Positions 23,950 through 45,841 are shown, counted from the first letter of the stretch. The stretch is DNA of 47,710 bases from Nitrospiraceae bacterium (GCA_037442105.1 JBBIQV010000022.1:1-47710), one strand, 5' to 3'. Program-made: numbers and translations. The notes: generated by a model from the sequence alone, not told the origin.

Positions 23950-24447
23950 TTACAACCTGGCGAGCATCACCGCAACGAACACGACCGCCAGTGCAAGAAA
24001 GAGGGCAAGTCGCGGCAGCCAGGACGACACAATAACCAGCGCGCGATCGACGGGTGTTCTGCCCTCCTGTGGAACCGCGACCATCCGAGCCGTGCGCGGG
24101 CCCAAGACCTTGTCATGCAGCATGGTGAGTATCAGCAAGACGGCCACAAGCCCCAGCTTGAGGCCGAGAACTCGCGGCCAGCTCAAGGGATCGCCGACCG
24201 GGATACCTCGGTAGGAGACCAAGACCGGCCCGGTGCTCAGGAGAATCGCGATCGCGCCCCACGCCACCGTGCGAAAGCGACGCGCTATGGTTCGGAACAA
24301 CTCGGCTCGTTCAGCATCGAAGCCTTCGCGCCTGAAGACCGGCGCCAAAACCAGCGACAGAAAGATCATCCCGCCGATCCACGAAACCGCCGCGAGCACG
24401 TGGAGCCAGGCCACCAGAATCGGCATGCTCGACTCACTCAACCCCAT
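23950..24447 (-). CDS. CopD-like inner-membrane protein
   Basis: 'WLHVLAAVSWIGGMIFLSLVLAP' and 'KLGLV...MLHD'; 4 TM segments. Confidence 0.72.
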   Translation of the reverse strand: MGLSESSMPILVAWLHVLAAVSWIGGMIFLSLVLAPVFRREGFDAERAELFRTIARRFRTVAWGAIAILLSTGPVLVSYRGIPVGDPLSWPRVLGLKLGLVAVLLILTMLHDKVLGPRTARMVAVPQEGRTPVDRALVIVSSWLPRLALFLALAVVFVAVMLARL

Positions 24448-24477
24448 TCACCGATTCATGGCGGTTCGGCGGCATGG

Positions 24478-26076
24478 TCACGTCTTGACCCTGCCGCTTA
24501 ACCCTAACCTCTTGAGGGTGGGCGAAATGTCATGTGGTTGGAGCACGACTTCGATGAGCGAGACTCCGGAACGGCCGCACGCGTCATGCAAAGCGATCGC
24601 GAACTCCTCCGGCGTGCGCACGCGCGTTCCCTCGGCCCCGAGGGCTCTGGCCACCGCCACATAATCCCAGGGATGGATATCCCACCGGGCCGGCGTCCCG
24701 CCCAGCGCCTCCAGGCTGCGATACCCTCCGTTGTTGAGCACAATGACGACCGCGTCAACCCCGTACCGCACCAACGTCCCAAGCTCCATGCCGGTCATCT
24801 GAAACCCGCCGTCCCCTACCAGCGCCACCGGCCTGCGATCAGGCGCAGCCAGACCGGCGCCCAGCGCGGCAGGCACACCGAACCCCATGCTGGTGTAGTA
24901 CCCCGGATTCAGAATCGTCTCGGCGTTCAATGCGACCGCGCCGAACAAACAGTCGCCGGTGTCCGTCGTGAAGATGTAGCGCCGGTCGTCCAAGCGACTC
25001 AATTCCGAGAAGACCGCAGCGACCAAAGACCGGCTGTCCCCTTCGGGCGGTTCCGGCACGTAGTCGTTGCGAAACGCCCGCGGTTTGATCTCAGGACATT
25101 CCAACAAGGCGGTCAGAACCTCGGCGAGTCCGGTGTGTCGATACCGATGCCGGCTGATGATCACCTCGTCGGCCAACACCCGGATCAAGGTCCCTCGAGC
25201 AATCAGGCTTGTGAAGCGTCCGGTCTCGGTGTCCGTCAGCCACACCCCCAACATGAGCAGGCAGTCCGACTCTTCAACCATGCGCCGCGCATAGGGATGG
25301 CCGGCTGCGCCCATATAGGTCCCGATGAAGTTCGGATGATGCTCCGGAAAGACCGCCTTTCCCATGAACGAAGTTGCGACCGGCAGGTTGTACTGCTCGG
25401 CAAGCCGGATAAGCCGATCCCGAAGACCCAGCCGCATGATTTCGATACCGGCCAGAATCACCGGGCTCCGGCTCCGGTTGAGGCGGGCTGAAATCTCCTG
25501 CATCGCCTCCGCCAATGCCGCCTGATCCCGCTCCGGGACAAAGGGCGTCCACGCCTCGGCTTCGTCGATTTCGGCCCACGCCAGGTCTCGCGGAATTTCC
25601 AGATAGCCCGGCCGCTTCTCGCGCCGCACCGCATCGAGCACCCGCGCGATCTCGCGCGACGCGGCCTTCGGATCTTCCAGCGTCGCGCTGGCCGCCGTCA
25701 TCTGCTCGTAGATGCGAAGCTGCGTGTCGAACGCCTTCACCTTGTGATGGATCAGCAAATCCGGGTCCCGGCCGGCCATGTCGGGCGCACCGCTGACGAC
25801 AAGCACAGGCGATTTCTCCGCGTAGGCCTGTGCAATCGGATTGACCATATTCAGCACACCGGCGCCGTACGTGCCCATCGCCACCCCGATGCCCTTCAGT
25901 CGCGCATAGGCATCCGCCGCGAATCCGGCCGAAGGCTCATGAGTGGTCAAGATAGAACGGATAGGACTCTTGCCCAGTGCTTCATACAGCGGCAGTACGT
26001 GATCGCCCGGGATCCCGAACGCATGGGCGGCACCAAGGCCGAACAACCGTTGGAAAAGATAGGAGGCCAGACGCAT
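24478..26076 (-). CDS. ThDP-dependent 2-oxoacid decarboxylase (indolepyruvate/phenylpyruvate decarboxylase-like)
   Basis: 'FGIPGD', 'HEPSAGFAADAYAR', 'LIHH' and ThDP motif 'GDGGFQMTG...NNGGY'. Confidence 0.88.
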   Translation of the reverse strand: MRLASYLFQRLFGLGAAHAFGIPGDHVLPLYEALGKSPIRSILTTHEPSAGFAADAYARLKGIGVAMGTYGAGVLNMVNPIAQAYAEKSPVLVVSGAPDMAGRDPDLLIHHKVKAFDTQLRIYEQMTAASATLEDPKAASREIARVLDAVRREKRPGYLEIPRDLAWAEIDEAEAWTPFVPERDQAALAEAMQEISARLNRSRSPVILAGIEIMRLGLRDRLIRLAEQYNLPVATSFMGKAVFPEHHPNFIGTYMGAAGHPYARRMVEESDCLLMLGVWLTDTETGRFTSLIARGTLIRVLADEVIISRHRYRHTGLAEVLTALLECPEIKPRAFRNDYVPEPPEGDSRSLVAAVFSELSRLDDRRYIFTTDTGDCLFGAVALNAETILNPGYYTSMGFGVPAALGAGLAAPDRRPVALVGDGGFQMTGMELGTLVRYGVDAVVIVLNNGGYRSLEALGGTPARWDIHPWDYVAVARALGAEGTRVRTPEEFAIALHDACGRSGVSLIEVVLQPHDISPTLKRLGLSGRVKT

Positions 26077-26092
26077 CGGTACACGCCAAGCA

Positions 26093-26155
26093 TTCAGTTC
26101 TCAGCCGTCAGTCTTCAGCTCCGTGCTGATAGCTGACTGCTGATGGCTGACCGCT
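26093..26155. repeat. Heptamer repeat, (TCAGCNN)n...(GCTGANN)n variant
   Basis: tcagttc tcagccg tcagtct tcagc ... gctgata gctgact gctgatg gctgacc. The same variant occurs at 37291-37396. Confidence 0.75.
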
Positions 26156-26174
26156 CGTTCTGGTGCATGAAGAA

Positions 26175-27017
26175 TTACCTCGTGGAATCCTGGACACAGC
26201 GAAAGCCGACGTCGAAGTACGCGTTCTTCGGTGAGTAGTAGTTCCGGTTCGTGGTCCGCAGATCGTAGAGCATATTGTACCAGGAGCCACCGCGCAGCAC
26301 TTTGCTCCCGCCGCGAGAGGGACCAGTCGGGTTCCGATCCGGGGTTTTATTGTAATACCCCATGTCGTACCAATCTGCAACCCACTCCCACACATTGCCT
26401 GCCAGATCGTAGATCCCGTAGGGGCTCTTTCCCCCCTCCAGGCTCCCCACCACTACAAGCGTCTCGTACCCGCTCCAAACCGCCCCGAAATTCGCCCGGA
26501 GACGGGTCGGCTCCTCCTGACCCCAAGGAAACAACCGCCCATCGTCCCCCCGCGCCGCCTTCTCCCACTCTGCCTCGGTCGGGAGACGTTTCCCATAATG
26601 GCGGCAGTACGCATCGGCATCGTGCCAGGTGACGCCCACCACCGGCCGTTGCCCGTCGGTCGCCGGATTCACATCTTTCCATTTCGTGGGCTGATCGCGA
26701 CCGGTGGCCTGCATGAATCCGCCGTACCGCGCAGTCGTGACCTCATATTTGTCCATATAAAACGCGTCCAGATACACGCGATGGACCGGCTTCTCATCCG
26801 CATCCCACTTGTCATGCCCCATCGTGAACTCCCCGGCCTGAACCAGGACCATCGGGCCCTCGTCCTTGCCGGTGATCTCGACGGGGACAGTGGGGACCGG
26901 CTCCGGAAGGGACTGGCTCCCGCCGGAAGCGGGTGCCTGTCCCGTTCCGACGGGGATAGACCCCCACGGAATGGGTTCAGCCCCCGTGCCTGTCCCCATG
27001 GCTGAGCACAACGTCAC
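26175..27017 (-). CDS. Exported FGE-sulfatase (SUMF1)-fold protein lacking catalytic Cys
   Basis: 'FTMG', 'YEVT', 'RLPTEAEWEKAARG', 'GNVWEW', 'RGGSW' and 'GFRC'. The frame stays open up to a CTG at 27071 that follows an RBS. Confidence 0.9.
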   Translation of the reverse strand: MTLCSAMGTGTGAEPIPWGSIPVGTGQAPASGGSQSLPEPVPTVPVEITGKDEGPMVLVQAGEFTMGHDKWDADEKPVHRVYLDAFYMDKYEVTTARYGGFMQATGRDQPTKWKDVNPATDGQRPVVGVTWHDADAYCRHYGKRLPTEAEWEKAARGDDGRLFPWGQEEPTRLRANFGAVWSGYETLVVVGSLEGGKSPYGIYDLAGNVWEWVADWYDMGYYNKTPDRNPTGPSRGGSKVLRGGSWYNMLYDLRTTNRNYYSPKNAYFDVGFRCVQDSTR

Positions 27018-27067: not shown

Positions 27068-28255
27068 TCAGATAAAGACCTCCTGGACCGGACCAGCCGG
27101 CGGACCTTCATCAATCGGCCCGCTGCCCGCCACCGTGGTGATGATGCCGGTCGCCGCATCAATTCGCCGAATCCGGTGGTTTCCTGCATCGGCGATATAT
27201 AAGTTGTCGGCGGCGTCCACCGCAATCCCTGCCGGCGCATTCAGCCCGGCTTCCAGGGCCGGTCCTCCATCTCCGGAGAACCCGCGTGTTCCATTCCCGG
27301 CAATCGTCGTGATGACACCGGTCTTCATATCCACGCGCCTGATACGGAGATTGTTGTGGTCGGCAATGAGCAGGTTCCCTTTGCTGTCAAAGGCGATGGC
27401 CGCGGGTGCCTCGAGCTTGGCATCGCGTGCCGGCCCACCGTCACCGCTGAAGCCCATCTCTTCTTCCCCGGCCACGATCGTGACCCAGCCGCTTTTCGTT
27501 TTGGGATCGACCTTCGTCAAATCAGCCCTCTTGACGCGACTCAATGTGGCGTCGGCCCAATAGATGTGACCGTCAGGACCGGCAGCCACCCCGACCGGGT
27601 GCCAAAGATACTTGGGCGCTGCGCCTTTGTCCACCAATCGCGGGTCAGCACCCGCCACCGTCTTGATACGGCCGTCCTGATCCACGGCTCGAACGCACCC
27701 GTGCTGGGTATCCGCAATAAACAAGGTGCCCTTCGAGTCCACTACCACGCCTCGAGGAGCGGAAAGCCCGGCAGCGGTTGCAGGACCGCCATCGCCATAG
27801 AATTCAGTCCTTCCCGTTCCCGCGACCGTCGAAATGATGCCGGCTTGCGCCTCGACCTTTCGGACTCGATGATTCCCTGCATCGGCAATGTACAGATTCC
27901 CTGCCTCATCGAGGGCGATTCCGTGCGGGAAATACAATTTGGCGACACCAGCCTGGCCACCGTCGCCGCCGAAACCCCGCTCACCCAAACCGGCCACCGT
28001 GGTGATGGTGCCGGTCGTCTTGTCCACACGCCGAACCCGGTCATTGCTCGAGTCGGCAATATAGAGGTTGCCGGCGCGATCCACGGCTACCCCTCTGGGG
28101 TTGTTCAGTCGCGCCTCAACCGCCGCCCCCCCGTCTCCGGCAAAAGAGCCGCTGCCCGGCCCGACCGCCATGAGGGACAAGGGACCTGCAAGAACACTTG
28201 CGCCAACCAGTGCACAGGTGATCGTCATCCACCATTTCACTTCGAGTCGGAACAT
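27068..28255 (-). CDS. Exported NHL-repeat beta-propeller protein (teneurin-type NHL)
   Basis: About six repeats of 'GDGGxAxxAxLxxPxG(V/I)AxDxxGNLYIADxxNxRVR'; hydrophobic N-terminus; RBS AAGGAG. Confidence 0.9.
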   Translation of the reverse strand: MFRLEVKWWMTITCALVGASVLAGPLSLMAVGPGSGSFAGDGGAAVEARLNNPRGVAVDRAGNLYIADSSNDRVRRVDKTTGTITTVAGLGERGFGGDGGQAGVAKLYFPHGIALDEAGNLYIADAGNHRVRKVEAQAGIISTVAGTGRTEFYGDGGPATAAGLSAPRGVVVDSKGTLFIADTQHGCVRAVDQDGRIKTVAGADPRLVDKGAAPKYLWHPVGVAAGPDGHIYWADATLSRVKRADLTKVDPKTKSGWVTIVAGEEEMGFSGDGGPARDAKLEAPAAIAFDSKGNLLIADHNNLRIRRVDMKTGVITTIAGNGTRGFSGDGGPALEAGLNAPAGIAVDAADNLYIADAGNHRIRRIDAATGIITTVAGSGPIDEGPPAGPVQEVFI

Positions 28256-28393: not shown

Positions 28394-29347
28394 TTATCCG
28401 CCTGTTCCGTCTCGCACGTGAACCGGCACACCTCGTAGATCCCACACCAGCCCCAGCCAGGACAGAACTTTCAAGCCGTAATAGGTGAGATCGATCTCCC
28501 ACCAATAAAAGCCCTGGCGAGTGGAGGATTGATAATAATGGTGGTTGTTGTGCCAACCTTCGCCCAATGTGATCAGCGCCAGCCAGAAATTGTTGCGGCT
28601 GTCGTCGCCGGTCTTGTAGCGTTGGGAGCCGAACATGTGGGAGAGCGAGTTGATAGTGCAGGTGCCGTGCGTCAAGGCGACGGTAGAGATAAAGAATCCC
28701 CAGATCAGCATCTGGGGGCCGTTCGTGCCCAAACCGGGAGCGTAGGTGTGCAGCGCGACGCCGAGGCCGTACATGGCAAAGCCGAGGAGCGTGGGGACTA
28801 CGATGTCATAACGATCCAGAAATCGCAGTTCCGGAAACTTGGCGAAGTCTCCGATGTTTTTGAGATTCGGCGCGAAGTGGATGCGCGACGTGAACCAGCC
28901 GATGTGGGCCCACCAGAAGCCATAATACCGGGGGGAGTGGGGATCGTTCTCCGTATCGGAGACCAAGTGATGCGTCCGGTGATGCCCTCCCCACCAGAGC
29001 GGCCCGCGTTGGGCCGATGACGCGCCCAGCACGGCGAAGGCGAATTGGCACCAGCGTGATGTCTTGAACGAGCGGTGAGAAAAGTAACGGTGGTACCAGC
29101 CGGTGATCGCAAACATGCGAACGAAGTACAGTGCGATGGCCACGGCCACGGCCGTCCAGCTCCACCCGACCCAGATCACGCCCAGGCACATCAGGTGCAC
29201 CGCGATGATCGGAAGGCATCGGAACCAATCGATGCGGTTCGATCCGTCGGGCCGCAAGGCGTCGAGTCCGGCCCAGGAATCGAACCATCGCAAGAAGGAC
29301 AGCCACAGATCTTGGCGTCTGGATAGGCGAAGCGATGGCATTTCCAT
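28394..29347 (-). CDS. Acyl-CoA (delta-9-type) membrane fatty acid desaturase
   Basis: His boxes HRYFSH, HRTHH and HNNHH; 'NSLSH'; RBS GGAGG before ATG 29347. Confidence 0.92.
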   Translation of the reverse strand: MEMPSLRLSRRQDLWLSFLRWFDSWAGLDALRPDGSNRIDWFRCLPIIAVHLMCLGVIWVGWSWTAVAVAIALYFVRMFAITGWYHRYFSHRSFKTSRWCQFAFAVLGASSAQRGPLWWGGHHRTHHLVSDTENDPHSPRYYGFWWAHIGWFTSRIHFAPNLKNIGDFAKFPELRFLDRYDIVVPTLLGFAMYGLGVALHTYAPGLGTNGPQMLIWGFFISTVALTHGTCTINSLSHMFGSQRYKTGDDSRNNFWLALITLGEGWHNNHHYYQSSTRQGFYWWEIDLTYYGLKVLSWLGLVWDLRGVPVHVRDGTGG

Positions 29348-29396: not shown

Positions 29397-30185
29397 TTAT
29401 TCCGGATTCTTGGCTCCCGCCGCGCTCTTCGCACAGCGTACGCCGAGCCACTTGTATCGCGCGTGAGGCGGATACCAATGCCGGTGGGCCACGCGGCTCG
29501 GCCCCACGCCGTCCACCCACGACCCGCCGCGCAACACTTTATCCTTGCCAGACTCCGGACCGGTTGGGTTTGCTTCAGCGCTCTTTTCGTAATAGTGCGC
29601 GTCAAACCAGTCCGCGGTCCATTCCCACACGTTGCCGGCCATGTCGAAGAGCCCATAATCGTTCGGCGCGAAACTTCCCACCGGGAGCGTTCCCTGCCCC
29701 TCGTAATTGGCGCGCTTTCGATCCGGCCTGTCTCCCCAGGGGAAAGCCAATCCTTCTCGCCCGCCGCGCGCAGCCTTTTCCCATTCCGCCTCGGTCGGCA
29801 ACCGCTTGCCTATCCATTCGCAGAATGTTTTCGCCTCGAACCAGGACACGCCGACCACCGGATGTTGCGGAAATTTGTCGCCGCTGTGAAACCGGTCGCT
29901 CCTGTTCCAATAGGCAGGCGCTGAAGCGTCGGTCGCCTGCAAGTACTTGGCATATTGCTCGTTCATTACCTCATATCGGTCGATCCAGAATGCGTCCAGG
30001 ACCACGCGATGACGCGGATGTTCCTCGTCGAAGTCTCCGCCCATCTCAAAGGGGCCGGCCGGGATCAAGGCCATGTCCGCCGTCGTGCTTTCCGGCGAGT
30101 CGGCCGCCAGGGAGCAGTCGTTGGGAACCATCAAGAGACCCCAAATCAATACCCAGGCCGGCCGGCACCATCCTCGTCCTGTCAC
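29397..30185 (-). CDS. Second exported FGE-sulfatase-fold protein lacking catalytic Cys
   Basis: 'FEMG', 'RLPTEAEWEKAARG', 'GNVWEW', 'RGGSW' and 'GVRC'; signal peptide-like N-terminus. Confidence 0.9.
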   Translation of the reverse strand: MTGRGWCRPAWVLIWGLLMVPNDCSLAADSPESTTADMALIPAGPFEMGGDFDEEHPRHRVVLDAFWIDRYEVMNEQYAKYLQATDASAPAYWNRSDRFHSGDKFPQHPVVGVSWFEAKTFCEWIGKRLPTEAEWEKAARGGREGLAFPWGDRPDRKRANYEGQGTLPVGSFAPNDYGLFDMAGNVWEWTADWFDAHYYEKSAEANPTGPESGKDKVLRGGSWVDGVGPSRVAHRHWYPPHARYKWLGVRCAKSAAGAKNPE

Positions 30186-30532
30186 TCAGTTCTCACCTTC
30201 ATCATCGACTCCATCGACGGTCCTGGTGGAGGGGTCCGGCGGGTCACCGAGACGATTTTCCGCTCGCCTCCCTGAACCTGCACCGCCACATCCACCTTCT
30301 CGCCTATGGTGGTGCGCGCCAACTCACTGCTCGCCGAATCGGCGACCACAAACTGGCTCCACCCACCGGGCGTCTGGAGTTCCACCCGCCCCATCCCCTT
30401 GGCAATCCTGGTCACCGTACCGGAAATCGTTTCAGTGGGGGGACCAGCCGGTGCCGCGACCGGTTTTTTCTCGGGCACCTGCGCGCACCCGGCGATCAGG
30501 CACATGAACACTGCAACGCGTGAAAGCTTCAT
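30182..30532 (-). CDS. Lipoprotein with small OB-fold-like beta domain
   Basis: Lipobox 'IAGC'; 'SGTVTRI...TTIGEKVDVAV'; Met-rich C-terminus 'MESMMK'. Confidence 0.6.
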   Translation of the reverse strand: MKLSRVAVFMCLIAGCAQVPEKKPVAAPAGPPTETISGTVTRIAKGMGRVELQTPGGWSQFVVADSASSELARTTIGEKVDVAVQVQGGERKIVSVTRRTPPPGPSMESMMKVRTE

Positions 30533-30604: not shown

Positions 30605-31429
30605 CTATCGGATATCGGCATAGAGGTAATCCGCCCCGACTGTGAGCCGCTCCAGCCAACGGAGAAACCGCGACACTTCCTCGCCCCGGAAGATGCAGCC
30701 ATGCTGCGGCACCATCGCCTGGATCGTGAGGCCGTTCAATTTCCTGACAAAACCGGCCACGGCTTTGTTCGAACTCATATATCGCTGATGAAACCCCTGC
30801 ATGGACGCGACATGCTCCTGCCAATCGTCGATCACCAGACGGGGCTTCCCATCCTTGTACACGGCGGCTCCGATATCTCCAGAAAACAGAAATCCGCTCA
30901 CGGTGTCGAAGACGGCCATGTTCCCGGGCGAGTGAAGAAAGGGAGCCGTGATGCAGCGCAACTGGCCTCCGGTCTTGAGATTGATCGATACCCCCTCGTC
31001 CGGAACCGGAACATAGGACAACTTGGTCGCCATGAGTTGCGCCATGTCATAAGCCATGTAATGAGGCATGAACCGAGTCCACTGAGCCGGCACGACAACC
31101 TTCATTTTCATGCCGCCGGTTCTCATCCAGTGGGGGAGCGAGGCGCAGATATCGGGATCCTGGTGGCTAAAGAGCAGATGGGTCACTGTCATGGCTGAGG
31201 AGACTTGATTGACTTTTTGCAGAATCGGCAGATACCGATCATACCCGCCCGGTTCGAGCAGAAACCCTTCACCCCCATCCACCACGAGATAGCTGTTGCA
31301 TTCGATCTCCTCTCCCCCTGTGTGTACCCCCACCCAATAAATCTGGTGCTGCGGGTCGTCGAAGAGCGGAACTGCCCTGGAATAGTCGATCACACTGTTG
31401 GTCAAACCGAACAGCCGATTTCCACCCAT
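30605..31429 (-). CDS. Stand-alone MBL-fold di-iron protein, ODP/FDP-like (no flavodoxin domain)
   Basis: 'NSYL', 'SHQDPD', 'LHSPGN', 'FSGDIG' and 'PQHG' motifs. Confidence 0.8.
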   Translation of the reverse strand: MGGNRLFGLTNSVIDYSRAVPLFDDPQHQIYWVGVHTGGEEIECNSYLVVDGGEGFLLEPGGYDRYLPILQKVNQVSSAMTVTHLLFSHQDPDICASLPHWMRTGGMKMKVVVPAQWTRFMPHYMAYDMAQLMATKLSYVPVPDEGVSINLKTGGQLRCITAPFLHSPGNMAVFDTVSGFLFSGDIGAAVYKDGKPRLVIDDWQEHVASMQGFHQRYMSSNKAVAGFVRKLNGLTIQAMVPQHGCIFRGEEVSRFLRWLERLTVGADYLYADIR

Positions 31430-31447: not shown

Positions 31448-31912
31448 TCATTCCTTCACGGTTTCACTCATCGATGCTGGACGCCTCCCTGCAAGGGAAA
31501 TGAACTCCATAGGGCTGATCGCCGGCTGATAGAGCACCTGAATCGTGTTGTCATCCGGATCCGCGAGGTAGAAGGAGTAGCTGCCGTCTCGATGCCGCTT
31601 CGGACGATGGACGATCTTGACGCCGTTCTGTTCAATCCATTCGAACATGCGGTCAACATCCTGCGGCGTCTCGACCACAAACCCGAAATGGTCCATCGCT
31701 CGGTTGCGCCCATCGAACCGGTCCGCCATTTCGTCCAGCGGAACTTGGTGCAACGCCAAGTTGTCGGCTCCCGAACTCAGATACACATGATCGGGATCCG
31801 GCTGCCAGACCACCCGCATCCCGAACAGGCACTCGTAAAAGGCGCGCGACTGCCGGACATCGATCACTCGAAGCGCGAGGTGTCGTAACCCTCGAATGAC
31901 TGGTGCGCTCAT
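31448..31912 (-). CDS. VOC (glyoxalase/bleomycin resistance/extradiol dioxygenase) family protein
   Basis: 'LRHLALRV...SRAFY..LFGM', 'DHFGF' and 'SFYLADPDDNTIQ'. Its ATG overlaps the upstream stop. Confidence 0.88.
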   Translation of the reverse strand: MSAPVIRGLRHLALRVIDVRQSRAFYECLFGMRVVWQPDPDHVYLSSGADNLALHQVPLDEMADRFDGRNRAMDHFGFVVETPQDVDRMFEWIEQNGVKIVHRPKRHRDGSYSFYLADPDDNTIQVLYQPAISPMEFISLAGRRPASMSETVKE

Positions 31913-33155: not shown

Positions 33156-33641
33156 TCAGTTTTCCGCCGCAGCGTCCGTCGCCGTGGCGGCGGGCACCGC
33201 TTCTTTCACCATCAGGGGAAGAAACCGGCAATCCTTTGGAAAGGCCGGCGATGACTCCTCGATTGCTCCGAAGAACGGACAGGATACGGTCTGGATGACC
33301 ACCTGGGCGACGTCTTCTCGGTTGACGTGCGGCAGGTGGACATTGTGAAACATGGTTAAGCGACCATCGCGGAGATCGTAGAGCAGCGCAAGGGTGTTCT
33401 GCCGGCATTGCTGCTCGATCAGCAGCAACGCCTGCAGCAGCATGAGCCGGTCATCCGCTTTGCACGCCCCGTCATCGACAAGGATGACCACCTGCGGCCG
33501 AAGGCGCTTGAGCGCATGGATCCCCTCCATTAAATCCGTCGTCACCGTGGTGGGGAATCCGGTCCTGAGCCCCGCCAGCATGAACCGGAACCAGTTCCCG
33601 GCTTGCTCGTTCCGCGTGATCACCAGGATGCGCCTTCTCAT
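33156..33641 (-). CDS. Hypothetical protein with a degenerate receiver-like N-terminus
   Basis: 'RRILVITRN...EGIHALKRLRPQVVILVDD' resembles a REC fold without the acidic pocket. Lies 2 nt upstream of the monooxygenase. Confidence 0.55.
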   Translation of the reverse strand: MRRRILVITRNEQAGNWFRFMLAGLRTGFPTTVTTDLMEGIHALKRLRPQVVILVDDGACKADDRLMLLQALLLIEQQCRQNTLALLYDLRDGRLTMFHNVHLPHVNREDVAQVVIQTVSCPFFGAIEESSPAFPKDCRFLPLMVKEAVPAATATDAAAEN

Positions 33642-36190: not shown

Positions 36191-36272
36191 CTCACCTCAC
36201 TCTCTTCAATCTCTCCTCACCCCTCACCCTCTTTTACCTCTTACCACTCACCGCTCACCCCTCACCATTCTC
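36191..36272. repeat. Heptamer repeat, (TCACCCC)n variant
   Basis: tcacccc tcaccct ... ttacctc ttaccac tcaccgc tcacccc tcacc. Shorter copies at ~12450-12470 and 42170-42197. Confidence 0.7.
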
Positions 36273-37290: not shown

Positions 37291-37396
37291 AGCCTTCAGC
37301 GCTCAGCTTTCAGCTCTCAGCACTCGGTCGAATGTTATTGTCTGAGTCAGGAACCGCCCGCTTTGGGCTGACCGCTGACTGCTGACTGCTGATTGC
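37291..37396. repeat. Heptamer repeat, (TCAGC)n...(GCTGA)n variant overlapping the radical SAM 3' end
   Basis: tcagcgc tcagctt tcagctc tcagcac ... gctgacc gctgact gctgact gctgatt. Confidence 0.78.
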
Positions 37397-38350: not shown

Positions 38351-38908
38351 TCACCCTTCTTTGCCTGCCGCACGCACGCACTGCCACGCATACACGGCGA
38401 TCAGCGTGCCTACGGCCGACAGGTACAGCCCACCGAACGGAATGAAGAACCATCGCTCGGCCAGCACGAAGGCGGCGGATTTGCCTTGTACGGGCAACGC
38501 CAGCGCGACCGTCAGCCAGCCAAAGGGATACAACAACCCCAGTATTGTCCAACCCATTAAGAACGCCCGCATACGGTCGCCGACCTGGATATTCGCAATC
38601 ACCGTCACCAGCGCGAGTGTCACCAGCGCCAGCCCGTGCGTGTGGACATGAAACGTATGCAACCGAGCCAGAACTTCCTGCGCAATACCCTCCACGATGT
38701 TCTGGTCCACATCGCTGAGACCGGTCAGTTGGTGCACGGCCGGGTGCTCCTTTGCGGCTTCGGCCGCCGTTGCCAGAATCTGACTGCGAAACCCGCCTTG
38801 CAACGCCCCCGTCAACTCACCCCATCCGAAGAGAAGCAGACAGGCGAGCACCGCAAGGGCAGGCGGAGCTTTCACCGCCGCAACCTCCGCTGCGCTTCGC
38901 TCCCTCAT
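38351..38908 (-). CDS. Four-TM membrane protein with His-rich motif
   Basis: Hydrophobic helices with 'RLHTFHVHTHGLA' at the start of TM2; translationally coupled to the upstream gene. Confidence 0.65.
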   Translation of the reverse strand: MRERSAAEVAAVKAPPALAVLACLLLFGWGELTGALQGGFRSQILATAAEAAKEHPAVHQLTGLSDVDQNIVEGIAQEVLARLHTFHVHTHGLALVTLALVTVIANIQVGDRMRAFLMGWTILGLLYPFGWLTVALALPVQGKSAAFVLAERWFFIPFGGLYLSAVGTLIAVYAWQCVRAAGKEG

Positions 38909-39612
38909 GTTCCGCCTCCCCTAGCCGACATCAAGACCGTTCCAAGCTGTCCGCTCACCAGTTGATCCTGAAAACCCTGGAGGAGACCGGCGAGAAACTC
39001 AGCTCGCAGCGACCGCAGGCCGGCGGCATCACCCCGCTTCACCGCCACCGCCATCCGATCCAGAAGCTGATCCAGAGACTTGATCTGCTGCGGTGCCCGG
39101 AACTTGAGCAGTCGCTCGAACATGTGCGAGAAATAGTCGTGCGCGACCGCCAACACCGCGGCCTTGGTTTCAAGACGCGCATCGGCGGCCTGCATGAGCA
39201 ACTCCAGCCGGTCCAACTTTTCCAGGATCAGGAGAAAGGAGAGCGAGTAGAGTACCCGCTGAAGATGAGGCACGTCTTTCTGATCCAGCGCGCGCGTCGT
39301 ATCGTCTGCCAGTGTCGTTTGGTACGTTGCGTCGAGACGCTGGGCGGTGTGATGCAGCCCGACTTCCTGAATGAGCCGTCCGCGGCTGCTGTCCGGGAAA
39401 TCCTCCCGGATCGCAGCCGCCTTGGCATAAGCCTGCTCCGGCTTTCCACGGTTGATCAGCAGCAGAGTATCGTGCATCCGCTCCAAAAGGACCGGTACAG
39501 GTTGGCTCAGTTCATGAGCCTGCGCCGGCCCTGTAGAGCCCCACAGTACCAATGCGAGAATACCCCACCGCAGAACGGATACGCACATTGTGTCCGTTCC
39601 ACCATCTTTCAT
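38905..39612 (-). CDS. Exported all-helical hypothetical protein; mature form probably starts with His
   Basis: RBS GAGGAGG before ATG 39612; signal peptide ending 'AQA|HELSQ'. Confidence 0.65.
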   Translation of the reverse strand: MKDGGTDTMCVSVLRWGILALVLWGSTGPAQAHELSQPVPVLLERMHDTLLLINRGKPEQAYAKAAAIREDFPDSSRGRLIQEVGLHHTAQRLDATYQTTLADDTTRALDQKDVPHLQRVLYSLSFLLILEKLDRLELLMQAADARLETKAAVLAVAHDYFSHMFERLLKFRAPQQIKSLDQLLDRMAVAVKRGDAAGLRSLRAEFLAGLLQGFQDQLVSGQLGTVLMSARGGGT

Positions 39613-39706: not shown

Positions 39707-39889
39707 TTACGGCGTCTTAAAGAACGTGTCGTACGCCCCGTACACCAGAATGAGACCAATCGCCGTGAACCAGATATAGTCGCTCCCGCTGTATCCCGTC
39801 GTCTTGGCGGCTTCCTCAGCAAAGGACGCGCTCGGCCATAGCGAGCCGGCCAGCATGACTGAAAAAGCCGATTCCTTCATGTGCTTCAT
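39707..39889 (-). CDS. Small protein: signal peptide plus one C-terminal TM helix
   Basis: RBS GAGGAG; 'SASFA|EEAAK...YIWFTAIGLILVYGAYDTFF'; 60 aa. Confidence 0.6.
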   Translation of the reverse strand: MKHMKESAFSVMLAGSLWPSASFAEEAAKTTGYSGSDYIWFTAIGLILVYGAYDTFFKTP

Positions 39890-39968: not shown

Positions 39969-40793
39969 TTACTTCAGCTCGAACGATACCTGAGTATCGC
40001 CGTCCTTGACCTCGATCTCCTTGGTCAGCACGACATGGTCTTCATAGTTCGGACGCTCAAGTTGGGCGTCTTCCGGCTTGATGGCCCCGGCCTTGATCTT
40101 CGCATCAGCTTCCTTGAACGACTTGTCGACTTCCTCCCAGTTCCTCGCTTTCCAGCTCTCGTGCCAGGCCACGACCTTGTACTTGCCCGGAGGCACATCG
40201 CCGATCTTGAAATTCCCGCTGTCGTCGGTCACGGCAAAATACCCATGGTCGAAGGTATACACATAGCCGTTCATATGCACATGGGAGTCGCATTGGAGTT
40301 TATTGAGCCCTCCTGCGCGCAGTTTCCGCTCAATCACTTGGCCCTTTTCCGACAGCGCGACGTTGAATTGGGTCGCATGCTTGTCGTTGAAGGTGTGCGG
40401 ATTGTGCAGAATCGGATCGGTGTTCTTCATGGAAATGTTCTTGTTCTTGACCATCGCCACAACGTGCTGCACAAAGTCGCACTTCTTTTTGGGATCGCCC
40501 ATCTCCAAATCGTATTTCTCCTGCATCGGCCCGCCGCTGGCGCCTTCCAAATAGACAACCGTCCATTGGACGCCTTTGTTCTTCGGATTAACCGCCAGGA
40601 CCGGCAATTCGATCTCGGTCCCGCAATACTCCGCGTTCTTCGCGATACGAATCTTCGGATTCGCCGGAGCATTCCCTGAGAACGTCACTGTCCCGCTGAT
40701 AGACCCGGCTGCCAGGCTCTCCGCCACTCCGGCCGAGAGCCAAGCGACTGTCGCCATGCCGCACAACCCCATGATTCCCAACTTATTCATCAC
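39969..40793 (-). CDS. Exported cupredoxin-like protein with carboxypeptidase-regulatory-like domain
   Basis: Signal peptide; 'NTDPILHNPH' and 'CDSHVHM' (H...C-x2-H-x2-M T1-like ligands); 'AVTDDSGNFKIGDVPPGKYKVVAWHE'. Confidence 0.78.
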   Translation of the reverse strand: MMNKLGIMGLCGMATVAWLSAGVAESLAAGSISGTVTFSGNAPANPKIRIAKNAEYCGTEIELPVLAVNPKNKGVQWTVVYLEGASGGPMQEKYDLEMGDPKKKCDFVQHVVAMVKNKNISMKNTDPILHNPHTFNDKHATQFNVALSEKGQVIERKLRAGGLNKLQCDSHVHMNGYVYTFDHGYFAVTDDSGNFKIGDVPPGKYKVVAWHESWKARNWEEVDKSFKEADAKIKAGAIKPEDAQLERPNYEDHVVLTKEIEVKDGDTQVSFELK

Positions 40794-40859: not shown

Positions 40860-41321
40860 CTACCCTCCGGACTCCAGCAACTTCTTCACGCTTTCATCGA
40901 TCGACGGCCCACCTTTGAATTCACGGGAGGGGATGCCCCGCCGCTGCGACGTCACCATGTAAAACTTGCCGTCGGTGCCCACCCGCACGCGCGTGTCCAA
41001 CTCCTGTCCGACCCGCACCCGTCTCTTGAAATGTTTGATCGCCTCATCCGTTTCGATGATCACCTCGATGTTCTGCCCCAGCCGTTCCAGCGCTCCCTCG
41101 ATCACCTTCATCGTGATGCTGATCGGAGGCGCCTCGTAGTTGGTCTTGGTCACAATCCCCATCAGAAAAATGTCGAAGCCTGCGCGCTGGCCGACCGATG
41201 AGTCGCTGGAGGATCCTTTCTTGCTCTCCGAACCAGCCGATGGCTCAGCGGCCCGAACGCTCCCCCCTGTCACACTCATTGCCAGCATCGTTCCCGCCAC
41301 GACAGCCACCAGCCAGTGCAC
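40860..41321 (-). CDS. Exported hypothetical protein, OB-fold-like
   Basis: Signal peptide 'SVRA|AEP'; 'GIVTKTN...RVRVGQELDTRV'. Start uncertain. Confidence 0.55.
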   Translation of the reverse strand: MHWLVAVVAGTMLAMSVTGGSVRAAEPSAGSESKKGSSSDSSVGQRAGFDIFLMGIVTKTNYEAPPISITMKVIEGALERLGQNIEVIIETDEAIKHFKRRVRVGQELDTRVRVGTDGKFYMVTSQRRGIPSREFKGGPSIDESVKKLLESGG

Positions 41322-41355: not shown

Positions 41356-41739
41356 TTAGGGCTCAACGACCACCTCCCCGAGCATTCCGCCCTTCCCTGA
41401 AATTGATTGCAGCGACCAGTGGATGACGCACATATAGGGATACGTTCCAGGCTTCTCGAACTTGAACAGATAGTGTTGACCCGGCAGCAACGTCCCCCCA
41501 TCCAGCGGTTTCGCGAGGTTTGGATCATTGAGATCTTTCCCGCTGATGACCTGGTGGACGTCTTGATCGTCATTGATCCACTCGACCACGTCTCCGACTT
41601 TGATCTTGAGGGTATCGGGAGTGAACTGCCGATCCTTCATGGAGACCTTGATCATCTCGGCCGGAGCCGGCCCTGCCGCAAGCCACGACAGTGCCGACAT
41701 CGCCAACACTGCTGCCGCCGCCCGTTGAATTCGATTCAT
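41356..41739 (-). CDS. Cupredoxin (plastocyanin/amicyanin-like blue copper protein)
   Basis: Signal peptide, 'FTPDTLKIKVGDVVEWIN', 'HQV' and 'PGTYPYMCVIH...GMLGEVVV'. Confidence 0.9.
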   Translation of the reverse strand: MNRIQRAAAAVLAMSALSWLAAGPAPAEMIKVSMKDRQFTPDTLKIKVGDVVEWINDDQDVHQVISGKDLNDPNLAKPLDGGTLLPGQHYLFKFEKPGTYPYMCVIHWSLQSISGKGGMLGEVVVEP

Positions 41740-42198: not shown

Positions 42199-42507
42199 TT
42201 ACGGTCCCGTCCCCACCGCTACGGTCTGCACCACATCCTCTTTTGATAGCCGGAGCTCGACCCGCTCAGCCTTCTTGCCGACCCGGTCCAACTGATCAGC
42301 CGCCTCGGCGGAGAGTTTCAACTTCACCGACTGGCCCGGGACAATTTCAACCGTTGCAGTCTTGCCCTTGACATCAACTTCTTTCAGCGTCCCTTGCACG
42401 ATCTTGACCGGCGCCTGCGCAGCCCGCTCCGCCTTCGTCTCGGCCATGGCGACGCTCAAGAAGCCGCCGATCACGATGATGGACAGGATCAACATCAGTT
42501 TCTTCAT
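42199..42507 (-). CDS. Small exported OB-fold-like protein
   Basis: Signal peptide 'AMA|ET'; 'GTLKEVDVKGKTATVEI...RVELRL'; RBS AAGGAG. Confidence 0.65.
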   Translation of the reverse strand: MKKLMLILSIIVIGGFLSVAMAETKAERAAQAPVKIVQGTLKEVDVKGKTATVEIVPGQSVKLKLSAEAADQLDRVGKKAERVELRLSKEDVVQTVAVGTGP

Positions 42508-42572: not shown

Positions 42573-42917
42573 TCAGTGAGCCGGAGCCGGAGCCGGCGCC
42601 GCAGCAGCCGCCTCAGCAGGCCGGATCGTGACCGGCAGATTCCGGCGCAGCACCGTGATCACCTTGTCGCCGTCGGCCGTAATGTCCACTCCATCACCGA
42701 CATTGAGCCGCTTTTTCCAAACCGGACTAGCCAGAATGTCTTTGTCCGTCACCGTAAAGGCCTTCGTTCCCCCGTTCCGTAACTCGATCTCGACTGCCCC
42801 GGAGTCCTTGTTGATCTTGGTGACATTCCCGGAATGGACCACGCGATCGGCGAAGGCCACCCCACCAAACAGGATCGTCCAGGAGATCGCGATTAGTAAC
42901 AACCGTGAAATTCTCAT
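42573..42917 (-). CDS. Small exported OB-fold-like protein
   Basis: Signal peptide 'AFA|DR'; 'SGNVTKINKDSGAVEIEL...LNVGDGVDITA'; Ala/Pro tail ending in His; RBS GAGGAGG. Confidence 0.68.
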   Translation of the reverse strand: MRISRLLLIAISWTILFGGVAFADRVVHSGNVTKINKDSGAVEIELRNGGTKAFTVTDKDILASPVWKKRLNVGDGVDITADGDKVITVLRRNLPVTIRPAEAAAAAPAPAPAH

Positions 42918-42971: not shown

Positions 42972-42994
42972 CAAGCACCGTTCCAGTTCTACGG

Positions 42995-44197
42995 CTATTC
43001 GCCCGCGAGCTGCTTCTTGATCGCCTTATGAGACAGCGACATGTTCATGCTCTTGGGATCGTCCATATGCTTAAAGCCCGGCAATGGCAACTGCGGGATC
43101 ACCGGGAGATATGGATTGTTCTCGTACTCGACGACCGTCAACAGTCCGCCCGGATAGGCTCCGTCGTTGGTCGCATGTGGCACCCGGTGGCAATGGAAGA
43201 CCCATCGGCCGGGGTTGTTGGCCTTGAACACGATATCCGTCCGCTGGGCGGCGTTCAGGTTCATCGCATCCCTGAACTCCCAAATCCTCGGACAGCGATC
43301 GCACTCGGCGCTGGCCTGTGCGAACGCATGGCCGTGCAGGTGCATCGCATGGCTCCAGTAGCCGAAATTCAGGAACCGGACCCGCACGATGTCGCCTTCC
43401 CGCACGAAGATCATCGGGGTCTCGGGGAACGACTTCCCGTTGATCGTGAAATAATTGAAGTTGGCGATCTTGCGCGGATGGCCCAACTCCATACCGCCGC
43501 TCTCGCCGTCGTCAATGCGGGTATCCACTTCGTCCAGGATCATCACATAGTCGCGATCGATCTTGGCCGCAGGGTCCGCCGCCTGGGAGGCAACCGTCCC
43601 GTTCGCCACCTCGGGCCCCGGATACACGATGAAGGAGCCATAGAGGCCCATGTCCATGTGCGTGGCCGCGTTCACGTGGCAGTGATAGAAGTGGTGGCCT
43701 GACGGCTTCGCCATGAACTCATAGACGAACGTCTCACCCGGCTGGATGGACAACTGGGTGACATTGGGAACCCCGTCCATGTTGACCGGCACCCACTGAC
43801 CGTGCGGGTGGATCGTATGGTCGATCGTGGTGTTGTTCTTGACCGTGATGCGGACGATATCGCCTTCGGTCGCCGTGAGCAGCGGCCCCGGCACCTGGCC
43901 GTTGAACGCCCATTGCGTCACGTACACGTCACCGACGATGTTCCACTTGATCTGCTCGATGGTCAGATAATATTCGACCAACTTGCCGGTCGCCCGGAAC
44001 GACATATTCTCCGCCGCCCAGATGTCGGGCGGATAGGCGAACTTGCTCACCGGGGGATTCTTGATCGAATTCCACCGGTCCGGGTACGGCTGCTTGTGAG
44101 TCTTGACTTCCGGGTCAGCCGCAAACGCGACGCCGGCCGTGAAGGCGCACAGCATCAGCGCTATAATTGCGGTAACCACTGTTCTTTTCCGTTCCAT
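42995..44197 (-). CDS. Two-domain multicopper oxidase with T1 ligand sets in both domains (type A 2dMCO)
   Basis: Domain 1: HTIHPHG and HCHVNAATHMDMGL. Domain 2: HAMHLHG and HCHRVPH...GGL. Sec-type signal 'AFA|AD'. Confidence 0.9.
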   Translation of the reverse strand: MERKRTVVTAIIALMLCAFTAGVAFAADPEVKTHKQPYPDRWNSIKNPPVSKFAYPPDIWAAENMSFRATGKLVEYYLTIEQIKWNIVGDVYVTQWAFNGQVPGPLLTATEGDIVRITVKNNTTIDHTIHPHGQWVPVNMDGVPNVTQLSIQPGETFVYEFMAKPSGHHFYHCHVNAATHMDMGLYGSFIVYPGPEVANGTVASQAADPAAKIDRDYVMILDEVDTRIDDGESGGMELGHPRKIANFNYFTINGKSFPETPMIFVREGDIVRVRFLNFGYWSHAMHLHGHAFAQASAECDRCPRIWEFRDAMNLNAAQRTDIVFKANNPGRWVFHCHRVPHATNDGAYPGGLLTVVEYENNPYLPVIPQLPLPGFKHMDDPKSMNMSLSHKAIKKQLAGE

Positions 44198-44316: not shown

Positions 44317-44913
44317 TCACACCTGCAGCATGCGGTAACTGACCCGCTGCTTCTGCTCGGCGGTCAACCGCATTTCCGCCAACACATAGAGAATCCGTTC
44401 CTCGCAAGAAAGGTGGCTGCGGTAGTGCCGGACGAACGTGCGCAGCTCCGCAGCCAGCGTTCGAAGCCCATTGTCCTGTTCCGGCAGCAGCGAAGGTTCG
44501 CCGCCGGTCTCTTTCTCTCTTGCGGTGAGTTTCTTCATGACGGAAAACGCGTCCGCCTTCAGCATCTGGTGCTCGTCCAACAAGCTCTGGAACTGGTTGC
44601 GTTCTTCACGCTTCCGGTCAAGAGCCTGCCCGAGCGCCGCGATCAGCATCGCTTCCCGCTTGAAGTGGACGCCGATCCGTCTCGTGAAAAATTTGAGGAG
44701 CTCGCACAGCGTGCTGCGATTCGCCTTCGTCAACACACCGCGCCGGGCTGGTCGTGGACCGATCGCGGTTTCAATCATGTCGAGTTGCTCGAGGATCATT
44801 TCGTGCTCCCGCCTGAGCAGAGCGACCGGATCGACCTTGAGGCTGCCCTGCCTATACGCTCGGGCCTTCCTCGATTGGCTACCATTTGTTCGTGAGCGTG
44901 AACGCGCGAGCAA
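44317..44913 (-). CDS. Hemerythrin/HHE cation-binding domain protein
   Basis: 'LRREH', 'HFKRE', 'LLDEH' and 'HLSCEERILY' motifs; probable TTG start after GAGGGAG. Confidence 0.8.
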   Translation of the reverse strand: MLARSRSRTNGSQSRKARAYRQGSLKVDPVALLRREHEMILEQLDMIETAIGPRPARRGVLTKANRSTLCELLKFFTRRIGVHFKREAMLIAALGQALDRKREERNQFQSLLDEHQMLKADAFSVMKKLTAREKETGGEPSLLPEQDNGLRTLAAELRTFVRHYRSHLSCEERILYVLAEMRLTAEQKQRVSYRMLQV

Positions 44914-44935
44914 GGCAGCTCCCTCACACGCGTGC

Positions 44936-45000
44936 ACTGTACAAAAGGAAAGCGAACCCTTCCCTGCGATCAGCCAATCGAGCCTATGATTGATCTCACG
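44936..45000 (-). promoter_or_regulatory. CRP/FNR-family binding site and candidate -10 element
   Basis: Minus strand CGTGA-GATCAA-TCATA (45000-44985; 8/10 match to TGTGA-N6-TCACA) and TACAGT at 44941-44936. The box centre is about 60-64 nt upstream of the inferred start site. Confidence 0.55.
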
Positions 45001-45036
45001 CCTCGGGGTAGGCCTTTGGACCTATGTCTTGGGATC

Positions 45037-45131
45037 AGTGAGTAGCGAATAGCAGGTAGCCAATAGCGAATAGCTGATAGCGAATGGCTCTGAGCTACTC
45101 GCTATTGGCTGTTCGCTATTCGCTATCAGCT
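45037..45131. repeat. Heptamer tandem/inverted repeat hairpin
   Basis: tagcgaa tagcagg tagccaa tagcgaa tagctga tagcgaa tggct ctg agcta ctcgcta ttggctg ttcgcta ttcgcta tcagct. Confidence 0.88.
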
Positions 45132-45841
45132 TAATGGCGGGCGATCCGGGCCAGGCGGTCCGCGTTCAGGAGGGTGATGGTTCTTCCGTCAATGTCGATC
45201 AGCCCTTCCTCTCGAAAGGCGCCGAGTAGGCGGATGACGGTCTCGACCGTGATGCCGGCCATCTCCGCCACTTCTTCACGTTTGAGCGTAATCCCGAGGA
45301 GGACGCCCTCCCCGCCTTTCTTGCCGAACCGCTGGCCCATTTCCAACAGCAGCCCGGCCAACCGCTCGCGCGCGGTCTTGAAGGTAAACTCGTCGAGCTG
45401 GTCCATATTCATCCCGAGCTCATTGCTCAGGAGCTGGATCAGCTTGATCGCCAGCTCAGGATTATGCTGGACAAAGGAGAGATAGCGCTCCTTGTCGATG
45501 ATGCAGATTTGAGATGGCTCCATGGTCTCGCAGGTCACTTCATGGAGCGCGTTCTCTCGAAACGCGTGTTTTTCGATCAGCTCGCCATGGCCGAGGATCC
45601 GGACGATCTGCCGCTGGCCGCGCCTCGAGGAGCGGGTGAGCTTCACTTTGCCCGTACACAGCAGATACAGACCGAGACACACATGCCCTTCATAGAACAC
45701 GGTCTGGTGAGGTTCGTAGGTGAGTGAGCGTTTGATTTTCTGAAATGTGACCAGATCCTCTTTCGAGAGGTCGCATACGACCGCCTTCGCTCGGAGCGCG
45801 CAGGTCTCGCAGTTTTCAATGAGACATAGATTCCGTTTCAT
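45131..45841 (-). CDS. fnr: FNR-like Crp/Fnr transcriptional regulator with N-terminal Cys cluster
   Basis: 'CLIENCETCALRAKAVVC' (C-x2-C-x8-C), a Cys in 'SQICII' at the position of FNR C122, and HTH 'REEVAEMAGITVETVIR'. Confidence 0.82.
   Translation of the reverse strand: MKRNLCLIENCETCALRAKAVVCDLSKEDLVTFQKIKRSLTYEPHQTVFYEGHVCLGLYLLCTGKVKLTRSSRRGQRQIVRILGHGELIEKHAFRENALHEVTCETMEPSQICIIDKERYLSFVQHNPELAIKLIQLLSNELGMNMDQLDEFTFKTARERLAGLLLEMGQRFGKKGGEGVLLGITLKREEVAEMAGITVETVIRLLGAFREEGLIDIDGRTITLLNADRLARIARH

Follow-up and report, generated by a model that had tools for sequence, protein, structure and literature searches.

A conserved gene island around a two-domain multicopper oxidase in Nitrospiraceae

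The DNA examined here, a stretch of 47,710 nucleotides from a Nitrospiraceae bacterium (GCA_037442105.1 JBBIQV010000022.1:1-47710), is the whole of contig C22 of its genome assembly (G000) and is called the window throughout. Its minus strand carries a gene island headed by an FNR-type regulator and built around an exported two-domain multicopper oxidase (2dMCO). An initial annotation had drawn the island as about 28 co-directional genes between positions 23950 and 45841. Comparison with related genomes shows a rare and conserved system whose membership is 17 to 21 genes instead of a fixed 28. It is a previously undescribed form of the module in which a 2dMCO is accompanied by small electron carriers, with several new protein families. 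No description of the cluster was found in the literature searched, which included the accessible text of PMC9040806, PMC12342949 and PMC11033732; subscription papers and the supplementary gene tables of PMC12342949, which possibly list the genes, lay outside the search. In the main text of PMC12342949, a 2025 comparative study of the order, the word copper occurs 0 times.

Gene order, distribution and edges of the island

Open reading frame (ORF) calls and Pfam placed all 28 named ORFs on the minus strand with the coordinates and order first given, and between the hemerythrin-like and CopD-like genes neighbours are spaced by -8 to 138 bp. The genes are linked rather than scattered in related genomes: in all six contigs that span the region (G000, G022, G023, G029, G567 and G618, from five genera) 17 genes keep a fixed order, namely AhbD-like, FNR, hemerythrin-like, oxidase, OB1, OB2, one or two cupredoxins, OB3, MauL-like, small transmembrane (TM) protein, His1, HisTM, TIGR01212, TPR1, IPT, NHL1 and TPR2. 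In three of the six, the AhbD-like gene and FNR are separated by additional genes, and G023 has a 1.6-kb gap ahead of TPR1; G474, G629 and G712 are broken or partial, yet consistent with the block order. The oxidase is the most conserved gene, at 88-98% identity versus mostly 60-85% for its neighbours. The Cys/His orphan, monooxygenase and VOC genes each occur in seven of eight relatives; the monooxygenase of G023 is a fragment only, the VOC gene is missing in G022 and the orphan in G567.

Beyond VOC (31448), the roughly eight remaining genes vary between genomes or are part of the host locus. Among the four relatives with contigs reaching beyond the tail, the thiamine diphosphate (ThDP) enzyme is present in two, OB4 in one and the CopD-like gene in one. 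The window desaturase shares 79% identity with a paralog in its own host but no more than 30-35% with its positional counterparts in four relatives, this position being filled by different paralogs across genomes, and many other tail genes have host paralogs in G000. The conserved unit first proposed was upheld in several genera for 17 genes, while the ThDP enzyme, OB4, the ODP protein and this desaturase are not constant members.

The oxidase was found in 8 of the 371 genomes of the family (E below 1e-50; 89-98% identity to the window copy), and HisTM in 11, nine at 77-100% and two at 51% in a different setting. The nine close HisTM carriers, from six genera, are the eight oxidase carriers, all with island-type HisTM, and G712, which is 70% complete. 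G001, of the same genus as G000 and 99% complete, has neither gene, and six further related loci yielded no additional carrier genome. In a metagenome scan a single close oxidase turned up, on a 1.6-kb contig; the other 79 oxidases were distant and for the most part had no island genes beside them. The oxidase subclade at 60% identity occurs in 1 of 21 genomes of family f3 and was registered in none of 115 genomes of f2 and none of 5 of f4, in searches that gave no signal of any kind.

An outer-membrane beta-barrel (OMP) gene, present in four of five island-free family genomes, marks the upstream edge. It is followed by an ODP gene and a CopD-like gene in island-free G011, and by FNR and PSP1 genes in island-free G033; these arrangements place the island between the OMP and CopD-like genes. 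The AhbD-like gene (46076-47203), which the initial annotation missed, has 73-78% orthologs in six island genomes and is assigned to the island because the five island-free genomes hold only 38-40% matches. The TIGR01212 gene is likewise island-specific, none of the five island-free genomes having a match over cut-off. At the other end, the CopD-like protein had been put forward as the copper handler of the system. It has 165 aa, scores 36 of 195 bits with the CopD model NF033808, has a host paralog beside the core ahbD gene and follows the OMP gene in G011, and that assignment was not supported. The features of the window are listed below in order of transcription.

47344..47710, minus: OMP gene, truncated at the contig end; core gene of the host at the upstream island edge (PF13505, weak)
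46076..47203, minus: AhbD/NirJ-like radical SAM/SPASM protein, island-specific copy (best model TIGR04545, 423 bits, cut-off 500)
45131..45841, minus: FNR-type regulator with N-terminal CxxC-x9-C and a conserved internal Cys
45007..45026, no strand: conserved palindrome ATAGG-N8-CC(T/C)A, putative operator (7/7 spacers)
44985..44998, minus: FNR/CRP-like site TGAG-N4-ATCAT(A) (7/7 orthologous spacers)
44317..44913, minus: hemerythrin-like di-iron protein, 4 His/2 Glu, RIC/YtfE-type (PF01814, weak)
42995..44197, minus: exported two-domain multicopper oxidase with type A ligand set (Pfam, alignment, model)
42573..42917, minus: OB1, exported small orphan (no Pfam match)
42199..42507, minus: OB2, exported small protein with two paralogs on contig C35
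41773..42174, minus: cupredoxin 1 with His, Cys-x-Ile-His and Gly-Met (PF00127, PF13473)
41356..41739, minus: cupredoxin 2 (Pfam; matches plastocyanins and the Nmar_1354 pendant cupredoxin)
40860..41321, minus: OB3, exported orphan (66-94% orthologs; no Pfam match)
39969..40790, minus: exported cupredoxin-like (MauL-like) protein (Pfam, invariant ligand residues)
39707..39889, minus: 60-aa protein with a signal and a single TM segment (60-82% orthologs)
38905..39588, minus: His1, exported all-helical orphan (alignment, model)
38351..38908, minus: HisTM, orphan with four TM segments (alignment)
37310..38317, minus: TIGR01212 (YhcC/MnmL-like) radical SAM protein, island-specific (364 bits, over the curated MnmL/YtqA cut-off of 180; putative tRNA role)
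36271..37176, minus: TPR protein 1 (TPR1), exported (Pfam)
35715..36185, minus: IPT/TIG protein, exported, with invariant C-terminal HxH (Pfam, alignment)
34479..35624, minus: NHL beta-propeller 1 (NHL1) (Pfam)
33722..34486, minus: TPR protein 2 (TPR2), exported, last gene of the invariant 17-gene block (Pfam)
33156..33641, minus: cytoplasmic Cys/His orphan ("pseudo-REC") with invariant H99, C121 and C138
31909..33153, minus: FAD-dependent monooxygenase, UbiH/PqsL-like fold family (Pfam)
31448..31912, minus: VOC/glyoxalase protein with a paralog on contig C1 (Pfam)
30605..31429, minus: ODP-family di-iron protein, variable tail; paralog beside a second FNR on contig C30 (Pfam)
30182..30532, minus: OB4, OB1-related lipoprotein-like gene, variable tail
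29397..30185, minus: FGE-domain protein 1 without the catalytic Cys pair, variable tail (Pfam)
28394..29347, minus: membrane desaturase (79% to host paralog)
27068..28255, minus: NHL beta-propeller 2, variable tail (Pfam)
26175..26999, minus: FGE-domain protein 2 without the catalytic Cys pair; position differs between genomes (Pfam)
24478..26076, minus: indolepyruvate/phenylpyruvate decarboxylase-like ThDP enzyme (TIGR03394, 445 bits, cut-off 555)
23950..24447, minus: CopD/DUF4149-like protein with four TM segments, host-locus gene at the downstream edge (Pfam, weak)

Pfam matched the FNR/CRP, hemerythrin, Cu-oxidase, two cupredoxin, radical SAM, two TPR, TIG and two NHL proteins of the block, and the FAD monooxygenase, glyoxalase, ODP, two FGE, desaturase, ThDP and CopD proteins; the hemerythrin, CopD and TIG assignments are weak. 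No fitting Pfam match was obtained for the proteins labelled OB-like and pseudo-REC. Matches to MamA, FosA and EgtB were dismissed as repeat or fold matches that stayed below cut-off. About 16 products had been credited with export signals; 13 of the 28 carry an N-terminal signal by a hydropathy test, and a further three have signal-like N-termini by eye.

Identity to relatives varies by block. The stretch from the oxidase to the MauL-like gene is nearest to genus g29 (OB1 92-96%, OB3 93-94%), and that from His1 to TIGR01212 is nearest to G629 and G712 (89-92%, versus 72-79% to others). This mosaic suggests, from sequence identity, that the island has been exchanged between genera, and it may be mobile; repeated loss may alternatively account for its patchy distribution. 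GC content is no marker of the island (0.597 versus 0.586), a promoter and terminator scan of the window stayed at chance level (4 versus 5.6 and 18 versus 15.2), and Rfam found no family in the window. Elsewhere in the window, a P-type ATPase and a glucan phosphorylase each appear split into several ORFs (16628-19641), and an MlaE/F/D-like ABC system with an auxiliary lipoprotein (20154-23758) lies beside the island in no relative. Short degenerate GCGAATAGC-type repeats occur in several intergenic spacers (45030-45130, 47230-47330).

The oxidase and its partner proteins

By Pfam and a monomer model, the oxidase consists of two cupredoxin domains only, in about 400 aa. Alignment places type 1 (T1) copper ligands in both domains (H127/C173/H180/L185 and H283/C336/H341/L352), with Leu at both axial positions, together with the eight trinuclear-site His residues (H130, 132, 172, 174, 286, 288, 335 and 337). 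As predicted from this ligand set, the enzyme is a type A 2dMCO, the class defined by T1 ligands in both domains (PMC13151041). The text of a 2011 survey (PMC3192119) places type A 2dMCOs only in archaea. The best solved relatives, by sequence (E 8e-53) and by fold, are the Nitrosomonas blue copper oxidase (BCO; 3g5w) and the structure 2zwn; the monomer model (pLDDT 79.5) gave a TM-score of 0.78 to 3g5w, normalised to target length. Scores with curated models were 87 of 296 bits for NirK (TIGR02376) and 120 of 479 bits for CopA (TIGR01480).

The oxidase clade comprises 14 clusters at at least 58% identity, including one Nitrospinota protein (P0012), and has a clade-specific SAECDRCP motif; Leu185 is invariant in all 14 members. 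In P0002, a clade member of 77% identity, Asp and Phe replace the domain-2 Cys and His, which by sequence is a change from type A to type C within the clade. A midpoint-rooted FastTree phylogeny was built from 147 sequences (P0001-P0120 minus the apparently frameshifted P0014, plus the locus oxidases; no PDB chains). The island clade (support 0.998) groups first with type-A-like enzymes (0.914) and next with type C enzymes (0.915). The full type A set is present in 57 of the 147 aligned sequences, 34 of them in an unrelated clade, and is thus not unique to the island.

Gene neighbourhoods differ along the tree. The type-A-like sister enzyme of G122 ends a bd-like oxidase/cytochrome c operon, where a MauL-like gene is also present, and MauL-like homologs adjoin the oxidase in sister clades. 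Type C relatives sit in operons of the order 2dMCO-cytochrome c-cytochrome c-nirK, FNR-headed in 5 of the 22 loci examined. In G055 (oxidase identity 63%) the Cys/His orphan directly precedes the oxidase, followed by a terpene-cyclase-fold protein, a desaturase and a monooxygenase, all of them preceded by an AioA/IdrA-type enzyme and a bd-like oxidase operon. The orphan family has 7 representatives in a collection of 1.84 billion sequences, and three more homologs lie on contigs whose lengths equal those carrying clade oxidases, from which we infer that they share contigs.

The proposal that the 2dMCO works with partner cupredoxins is plausible. Both cupredoxins retain the T1 ligands His, Cys, His and Met in alignment, and cupredoxin 2 matches the pendant cupredoxin of Nmar_1354 (9cck residues 338-402, E 8e-8), a solved precedent in which the cupredoxin T1 site lies 13.5 A from that of its 2dMCO and which oxidises hydroxylamine with O2 (PMC11761707). 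Among block proteins, the amicyanin model scored 40 of 110 bits. The product of 39969-40790, for which we presume the name MauL-like to be apt, has invariant H130, H133, C168, H171, H173 and M174, and no PDB match was found for it. OB1 is an orphan family of 38 homologue clusters, all at 56-96% and with no Pfam match, and is duplicated in three relatives. OB1-OB3 hold no invariant His, Met or Cys: OB1 lacks a Met in the mature chain and has His28 in 35 of 39 sequences, and OB2 and OB3 have no conserved copper-ligand residues. A CusF-type His/Met/Met copper site was rejected, such ligands not being conserved in the three proteins.

His1 carries an invariant Ala-His-Glu at its predicted cleavage site and mature N-terminus. 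Its model is all-helical, with no Foldseek match at E 0.001 and, in VIA, a best Z of 10.8 against a generic four-helix bundle. In HisTM, H59, H84, H87 and H89 are invariant in 36 aligned sequences of 69 available; its profile gave no PDB match. Matches of HisTM to Aq_1264_TM/SOI-like proteins in the Atlas (score 0.88) and of His1 to DUF5059 (0.78) are leads only. The pair recurs behind a porin-like gene (so labelled by sequence appearance; no Pfam match) whose product likewise starts Ala-His. This three-gene module lies within a copper-resistance island in G250 and G707 and beside metH in G162, G217 and G275; HisTM occurs without His1 in G353 and G413. Examples of the module are L164:11865-13968, L190:11515-13714 and L192:16561-18703, beside Cus/Cop genes or metH. 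Read from sequence and context, His1-HisTM is a candidate portable metal-delivery pair.

O2-carrying hemerythrins use five His ligands. The hemerythrin-like protein, whose TTG start was inferred from a Shine-Dalgarno site, instead has four His and two Glu within its conserved motifs (REH, VHFKRE, EH and HLSCEE), and its initial description as an O2-binding protein was not supported. Its ligand pattern equals the 4 His/2 Glu di-iron set of YtfE (PMC9268430); for the ScdA N-terminal domain of RIC/YtfE no match was obtained in it. In formylglycine-generating enzymes (FGE) a catalytic Cys pair follows RGGS, and neither FGE-domain protein was accepted as such an enzyme, the pair being absent.

Regulation and proposed function

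The designation FNR-headed was supported. The regulator conserves CxxC-x9-C and an internal Cys (VTCET), that is, three N-terminal and one internal Cys, with scores below curated cut-offs (Fnr/FnrL 95 of 228 and 92 of 300 bits). The spacer ahead of the hemerythrin-like gene is poorly conserved save for TGAG-N4-ATCATA, the CRP/FNR box of the initial annotation, and the palindrome, both kept in seven of seven genomes. The FNR-like pattern, with 0.02 chance occurrences expected in the window, is absent from 202 of 219 loci, and all 17 matching loci belong to the island, it being from these that the pattern was derived. Three more intergenic copies of the ATAGG-N8-CCTAT palindrome in G000 (C51:11622, C57:5672 and C1:54102) make it likely, by sequence, that a second regulator acts through it. 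Two of the extra palindromes precede a CorC-like transporter and a 4Fe-4S ferredoxin-like gene.

Elsewhere in the hosts, nirK was found in all four island genomes tested and in G000 (contig C39). An amoB gene was not found in any of 10 genomes searched, nine with the island, in a search whose positive control gave no signal either. In G055, a Nitrospirales genome, an AioA/IdrA-type molybdoenzyme (TIGR02693, 415 bits, over cut-off), a Rieske subunit and two di-haem peroxidases (L027:2584-9115, on G055:C3) lie upstream of the bd-like oxidase operon, an arrangement we take to resemble iodate reductase clusters; no AioA/IdrA-type gene is among the molybdoenzyme matches of G000, G022 and G029. At G000 C3:58187-100199, genes for type II secretion accompany a 1943-aa protein, three proteins with copper-oxidase domains, a Cyc2-like protein and a 24-haem cytochrome; with these labels given by sequence appearance, the cluster is a candidate locus for extracellular metal oxidation. 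At C30:24997-32840, heterodisulfide-reductase-like genes stand beside the second FNR, which is itself divergent from an ODP gene. A host FAD monooxygenase at C35:27348-28628, 34% identical to the island copy, is a candidate for the missing hydroxylase of methyl-plastoquinone synthesis; the text of a study of the Nitrospirota quinone pathway identifies no ubiH (bioRxiv 10.1101/2024.07.27.605408).

Our preferred reading, to which we give somewhat less than an even chance, is that the oxidase is a periplasmic enzyme induced at low oxygen which drains cupredoxin electrons to O2 and thereby limits O2 and N-oxide stress, much like NcgA. FNR would hold a 4Fe-4S cluster at low O2 and activate the promoter ahead of the hemerythrin-like gene. 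The apo-oxidase would be exported and trimerise, His1, through its N-terminal His, and HisTM, through its His-rich helix, could move copper as CopC/CopD do elsewhere, and the TPR, IPT and NHL proteins may be assembly aids. As an electron sink, the enzyme would reduce O2 to water with electrons from its own cupredoxins, probably charged by nitrogen-oxide turnover and docking at the T1 sites like the Nmar_1354 pendant domain, in place of the cytochromes NcgB/C. The RIC-type di-iron protein and an O2-independent haem synthase would serve the cytoplasm in the same low-O2/NO state. Expression of ncgA rises 2.6-fold under O2 limitation, in a study whose text describes the ncg role as not fully elucidated (PMC6967387), and ncgABC is tied to NOx handling and N-oxide tolerance (PMC5080386). 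Also in favour of this reading are the kinship with BCO by sequence, fold and tree, the bd-like and FNR-headed nirK neighbourhoods of related enzymes, the Nmar_1354 precedent, the YtfE-type ligands, the copper-resistance setting of His1-HisTM in G250 and G707, the strong conservation of the oxidase and the nirK genes elsewhere in the hosts.

Several points weigh against this account. The island lacks nirK and cytochromes c, leaving the NcgA analogy to rest on kinship at about 40% identity, and FNR-family sites cannot separate O2 from NO control, or activation from repression. Leu at the axial positions suggests a potential above what an ordinary carrier oxidase would require. The most faithful neighbour of the oxidase is a cytoplasmic orphan with a monooxygenase, which is not accounted for, and the occurrence of His1-HisTM beside metH in three genomes means that its metal need not be copper. 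Fragments of NxrA type were found in two of nine island genomes (G023 and G567) and NxrB in none of four (control G002 positive); several near-complete island-free assemblies likewise lack NxrA.

It is unlikely that the oxidase is instead a high-potential enzyme acting directly on Mn(II), Fe(II) or iodide, in which case the OB proteins would be its accessory subunits and electrons would travel to or from the respiratory chain on the cupredoxins. MnxG and other known Mn oxidases are far larger, the island holds no secretion or outer-membrane conduit genes, no Manganitrophus label occurs among the clade clusters listed, and the "manganese oxidase" tag on P0003 is an automatic name also borne by distant proteins. 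The invariant Leu185 and a 49% HisTM homologue in Ca. Manganitrophus noduliformans nevertheless fit such an activity, as do the large copper oxidases, Cyc2-like protein and 24-haem cytochrome elsewhere in G000. The G055 oxidase also shares its operon with the molybdoenzyme and two peroxidases, although that type of gene was missing from the matches of G000, G022 and G029. A lithotrophic multicopper oxidase would moreover require a periplasmic carrier (PMC9040806). That the enzyme mainly turns over NO, hydroxylamine or nitrite is unlikely. Nmar_1354 couples NH2OH oxidation to O2 reduction, the oxidase is akin to NcgA in the tree, and the first operon gene is RIC-type, YtfE being reportedly a nitrite reductase (PMC9052748); the complete trinuclear site and low NirK score argue the other way, and with amoB not found, in a search whose control was silent, an internal hydroxylamine source is not evident. 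We regard as distinctly unlikely a wider proposal, an all-copper periplasmic route by which Nitrospiraceae would gain energy from oxidising an inorganic donor of high potential (NO/nitrite, Mn(II), Fe(II) or iodide). Here the double-T1, Leu-axial oxidase would have orphan subunits, electrons would pass through the cupredoxins to a bd-like terminal oxidase, His1/HisTM would import copper and the island would have spread between genera.

Another possibility is a biosynthetic or lipid-modifying unit in which the orphan, FAD monooxygenase, VOC protein, desaturase and radical SAM proteins make a phenolic or quinone-like mediator that the oxidase would then oxidise. The G055 order is the deepest shared arrangement, the tail desaturase is kept through different paralogs, and the ubiH gap in the Nitrospirota quinone pathway also fits it. 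We consider it very unlikely in view of the fragmented monooxygenase and the losses of VOC and orphan described above, where the oxidase stays above 90%, and of the ThDP enzyme being present in only two of four informative relatives. Highly improbable, finally, is a loose low-oxygen fitness island, with independent modules at one hotspot under one regulator and no shared mechanism. Block-wise mosaicism, the separate travels of His1-HisTM and the host paralogs of many tail genes would suit it; the fixed 17-gene order across five genera and the presence of island-type HisTM in all eight oxidase carriers do not.

In a unit that could be expressed as a whole, the island brings together a bacterial enzyme with type A ligands, its probable redox partners and a candidate pair for copper delivery, and it defines the orphan families OB1, OB3, His1, HisTM and the Cys/His orphan. 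It bears on the role of two-domain copper oxidases in nitrifiers (PMC6967387). If the enzyme does turn over NO, nitrite or metals, a missing reaction would be added to low-oxygen nitrogen or metal cycling.

Comparison with known systems

One of the closest known systems is BCO/NcgA, encoded by ncgABC-nirK (Nitrosomonas europaea, 3g5w; Nitrobacter), which has the same two-domain fold and, at 37% identity, is the top match by sequence and fold. The two share a nitrifier host, adjoining small one-electron carriers and FNR-headed relatives in Nitrospirota. BCO, however, is type C, with Asp for the domain-2 Cys (HDH) and an axial Met, whereas the island oxidase keeps HCH and H341, both T1 sets and Leu. 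BCO/NcgA is partnered by cytochromes c and nirK; the island block has cupredoxins, neither nirK nor cytochromes c, and seven or more partners that are orphans or lack an assignment. Nmar_1354 (MCO4 of Nitrosopumilus maritimus, 9cck) shares the combination of 2dMCO and cupredoxin (fold TM-score 0.58-0.74) but has a fused cupredoxin, an axial Met and a hydroxylamine-making host, and is only 23-24% identical to the island oxidase.

By curated cut-offs and gene content, the initial view that the cluster is none of cop/pco, nirK, mnx or mau was borne out. NirK has a type 2 site without type 3 His, whereas the island oxidase retains all type 3 His residues, at a score of 87 of 296 bits. Like cop/pco, the island encodes an exported multicopper oxidase and places a periplasmic protein with an N-terminal His beside a His-rich membrane protein; it differs in its CopA (120/479) and CopD (36/195 bits) scores, in having no CopB or CopC Pfam match and in being headed by FNR rather than a copper sensor. 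CopC is a beta-sandwich, unlike the all-helical His1, which has no PDB match. No methylamine dehydrogenase subunit or MauG match was found among the block proteins with Pfam and NCBIfam, which sets the island apart from mau. The Mnx manganese oxidase is built on the large six-domain MnxG with MnxE/F, in contrast to the two domains and roughly 400 aa of the island oxidase.

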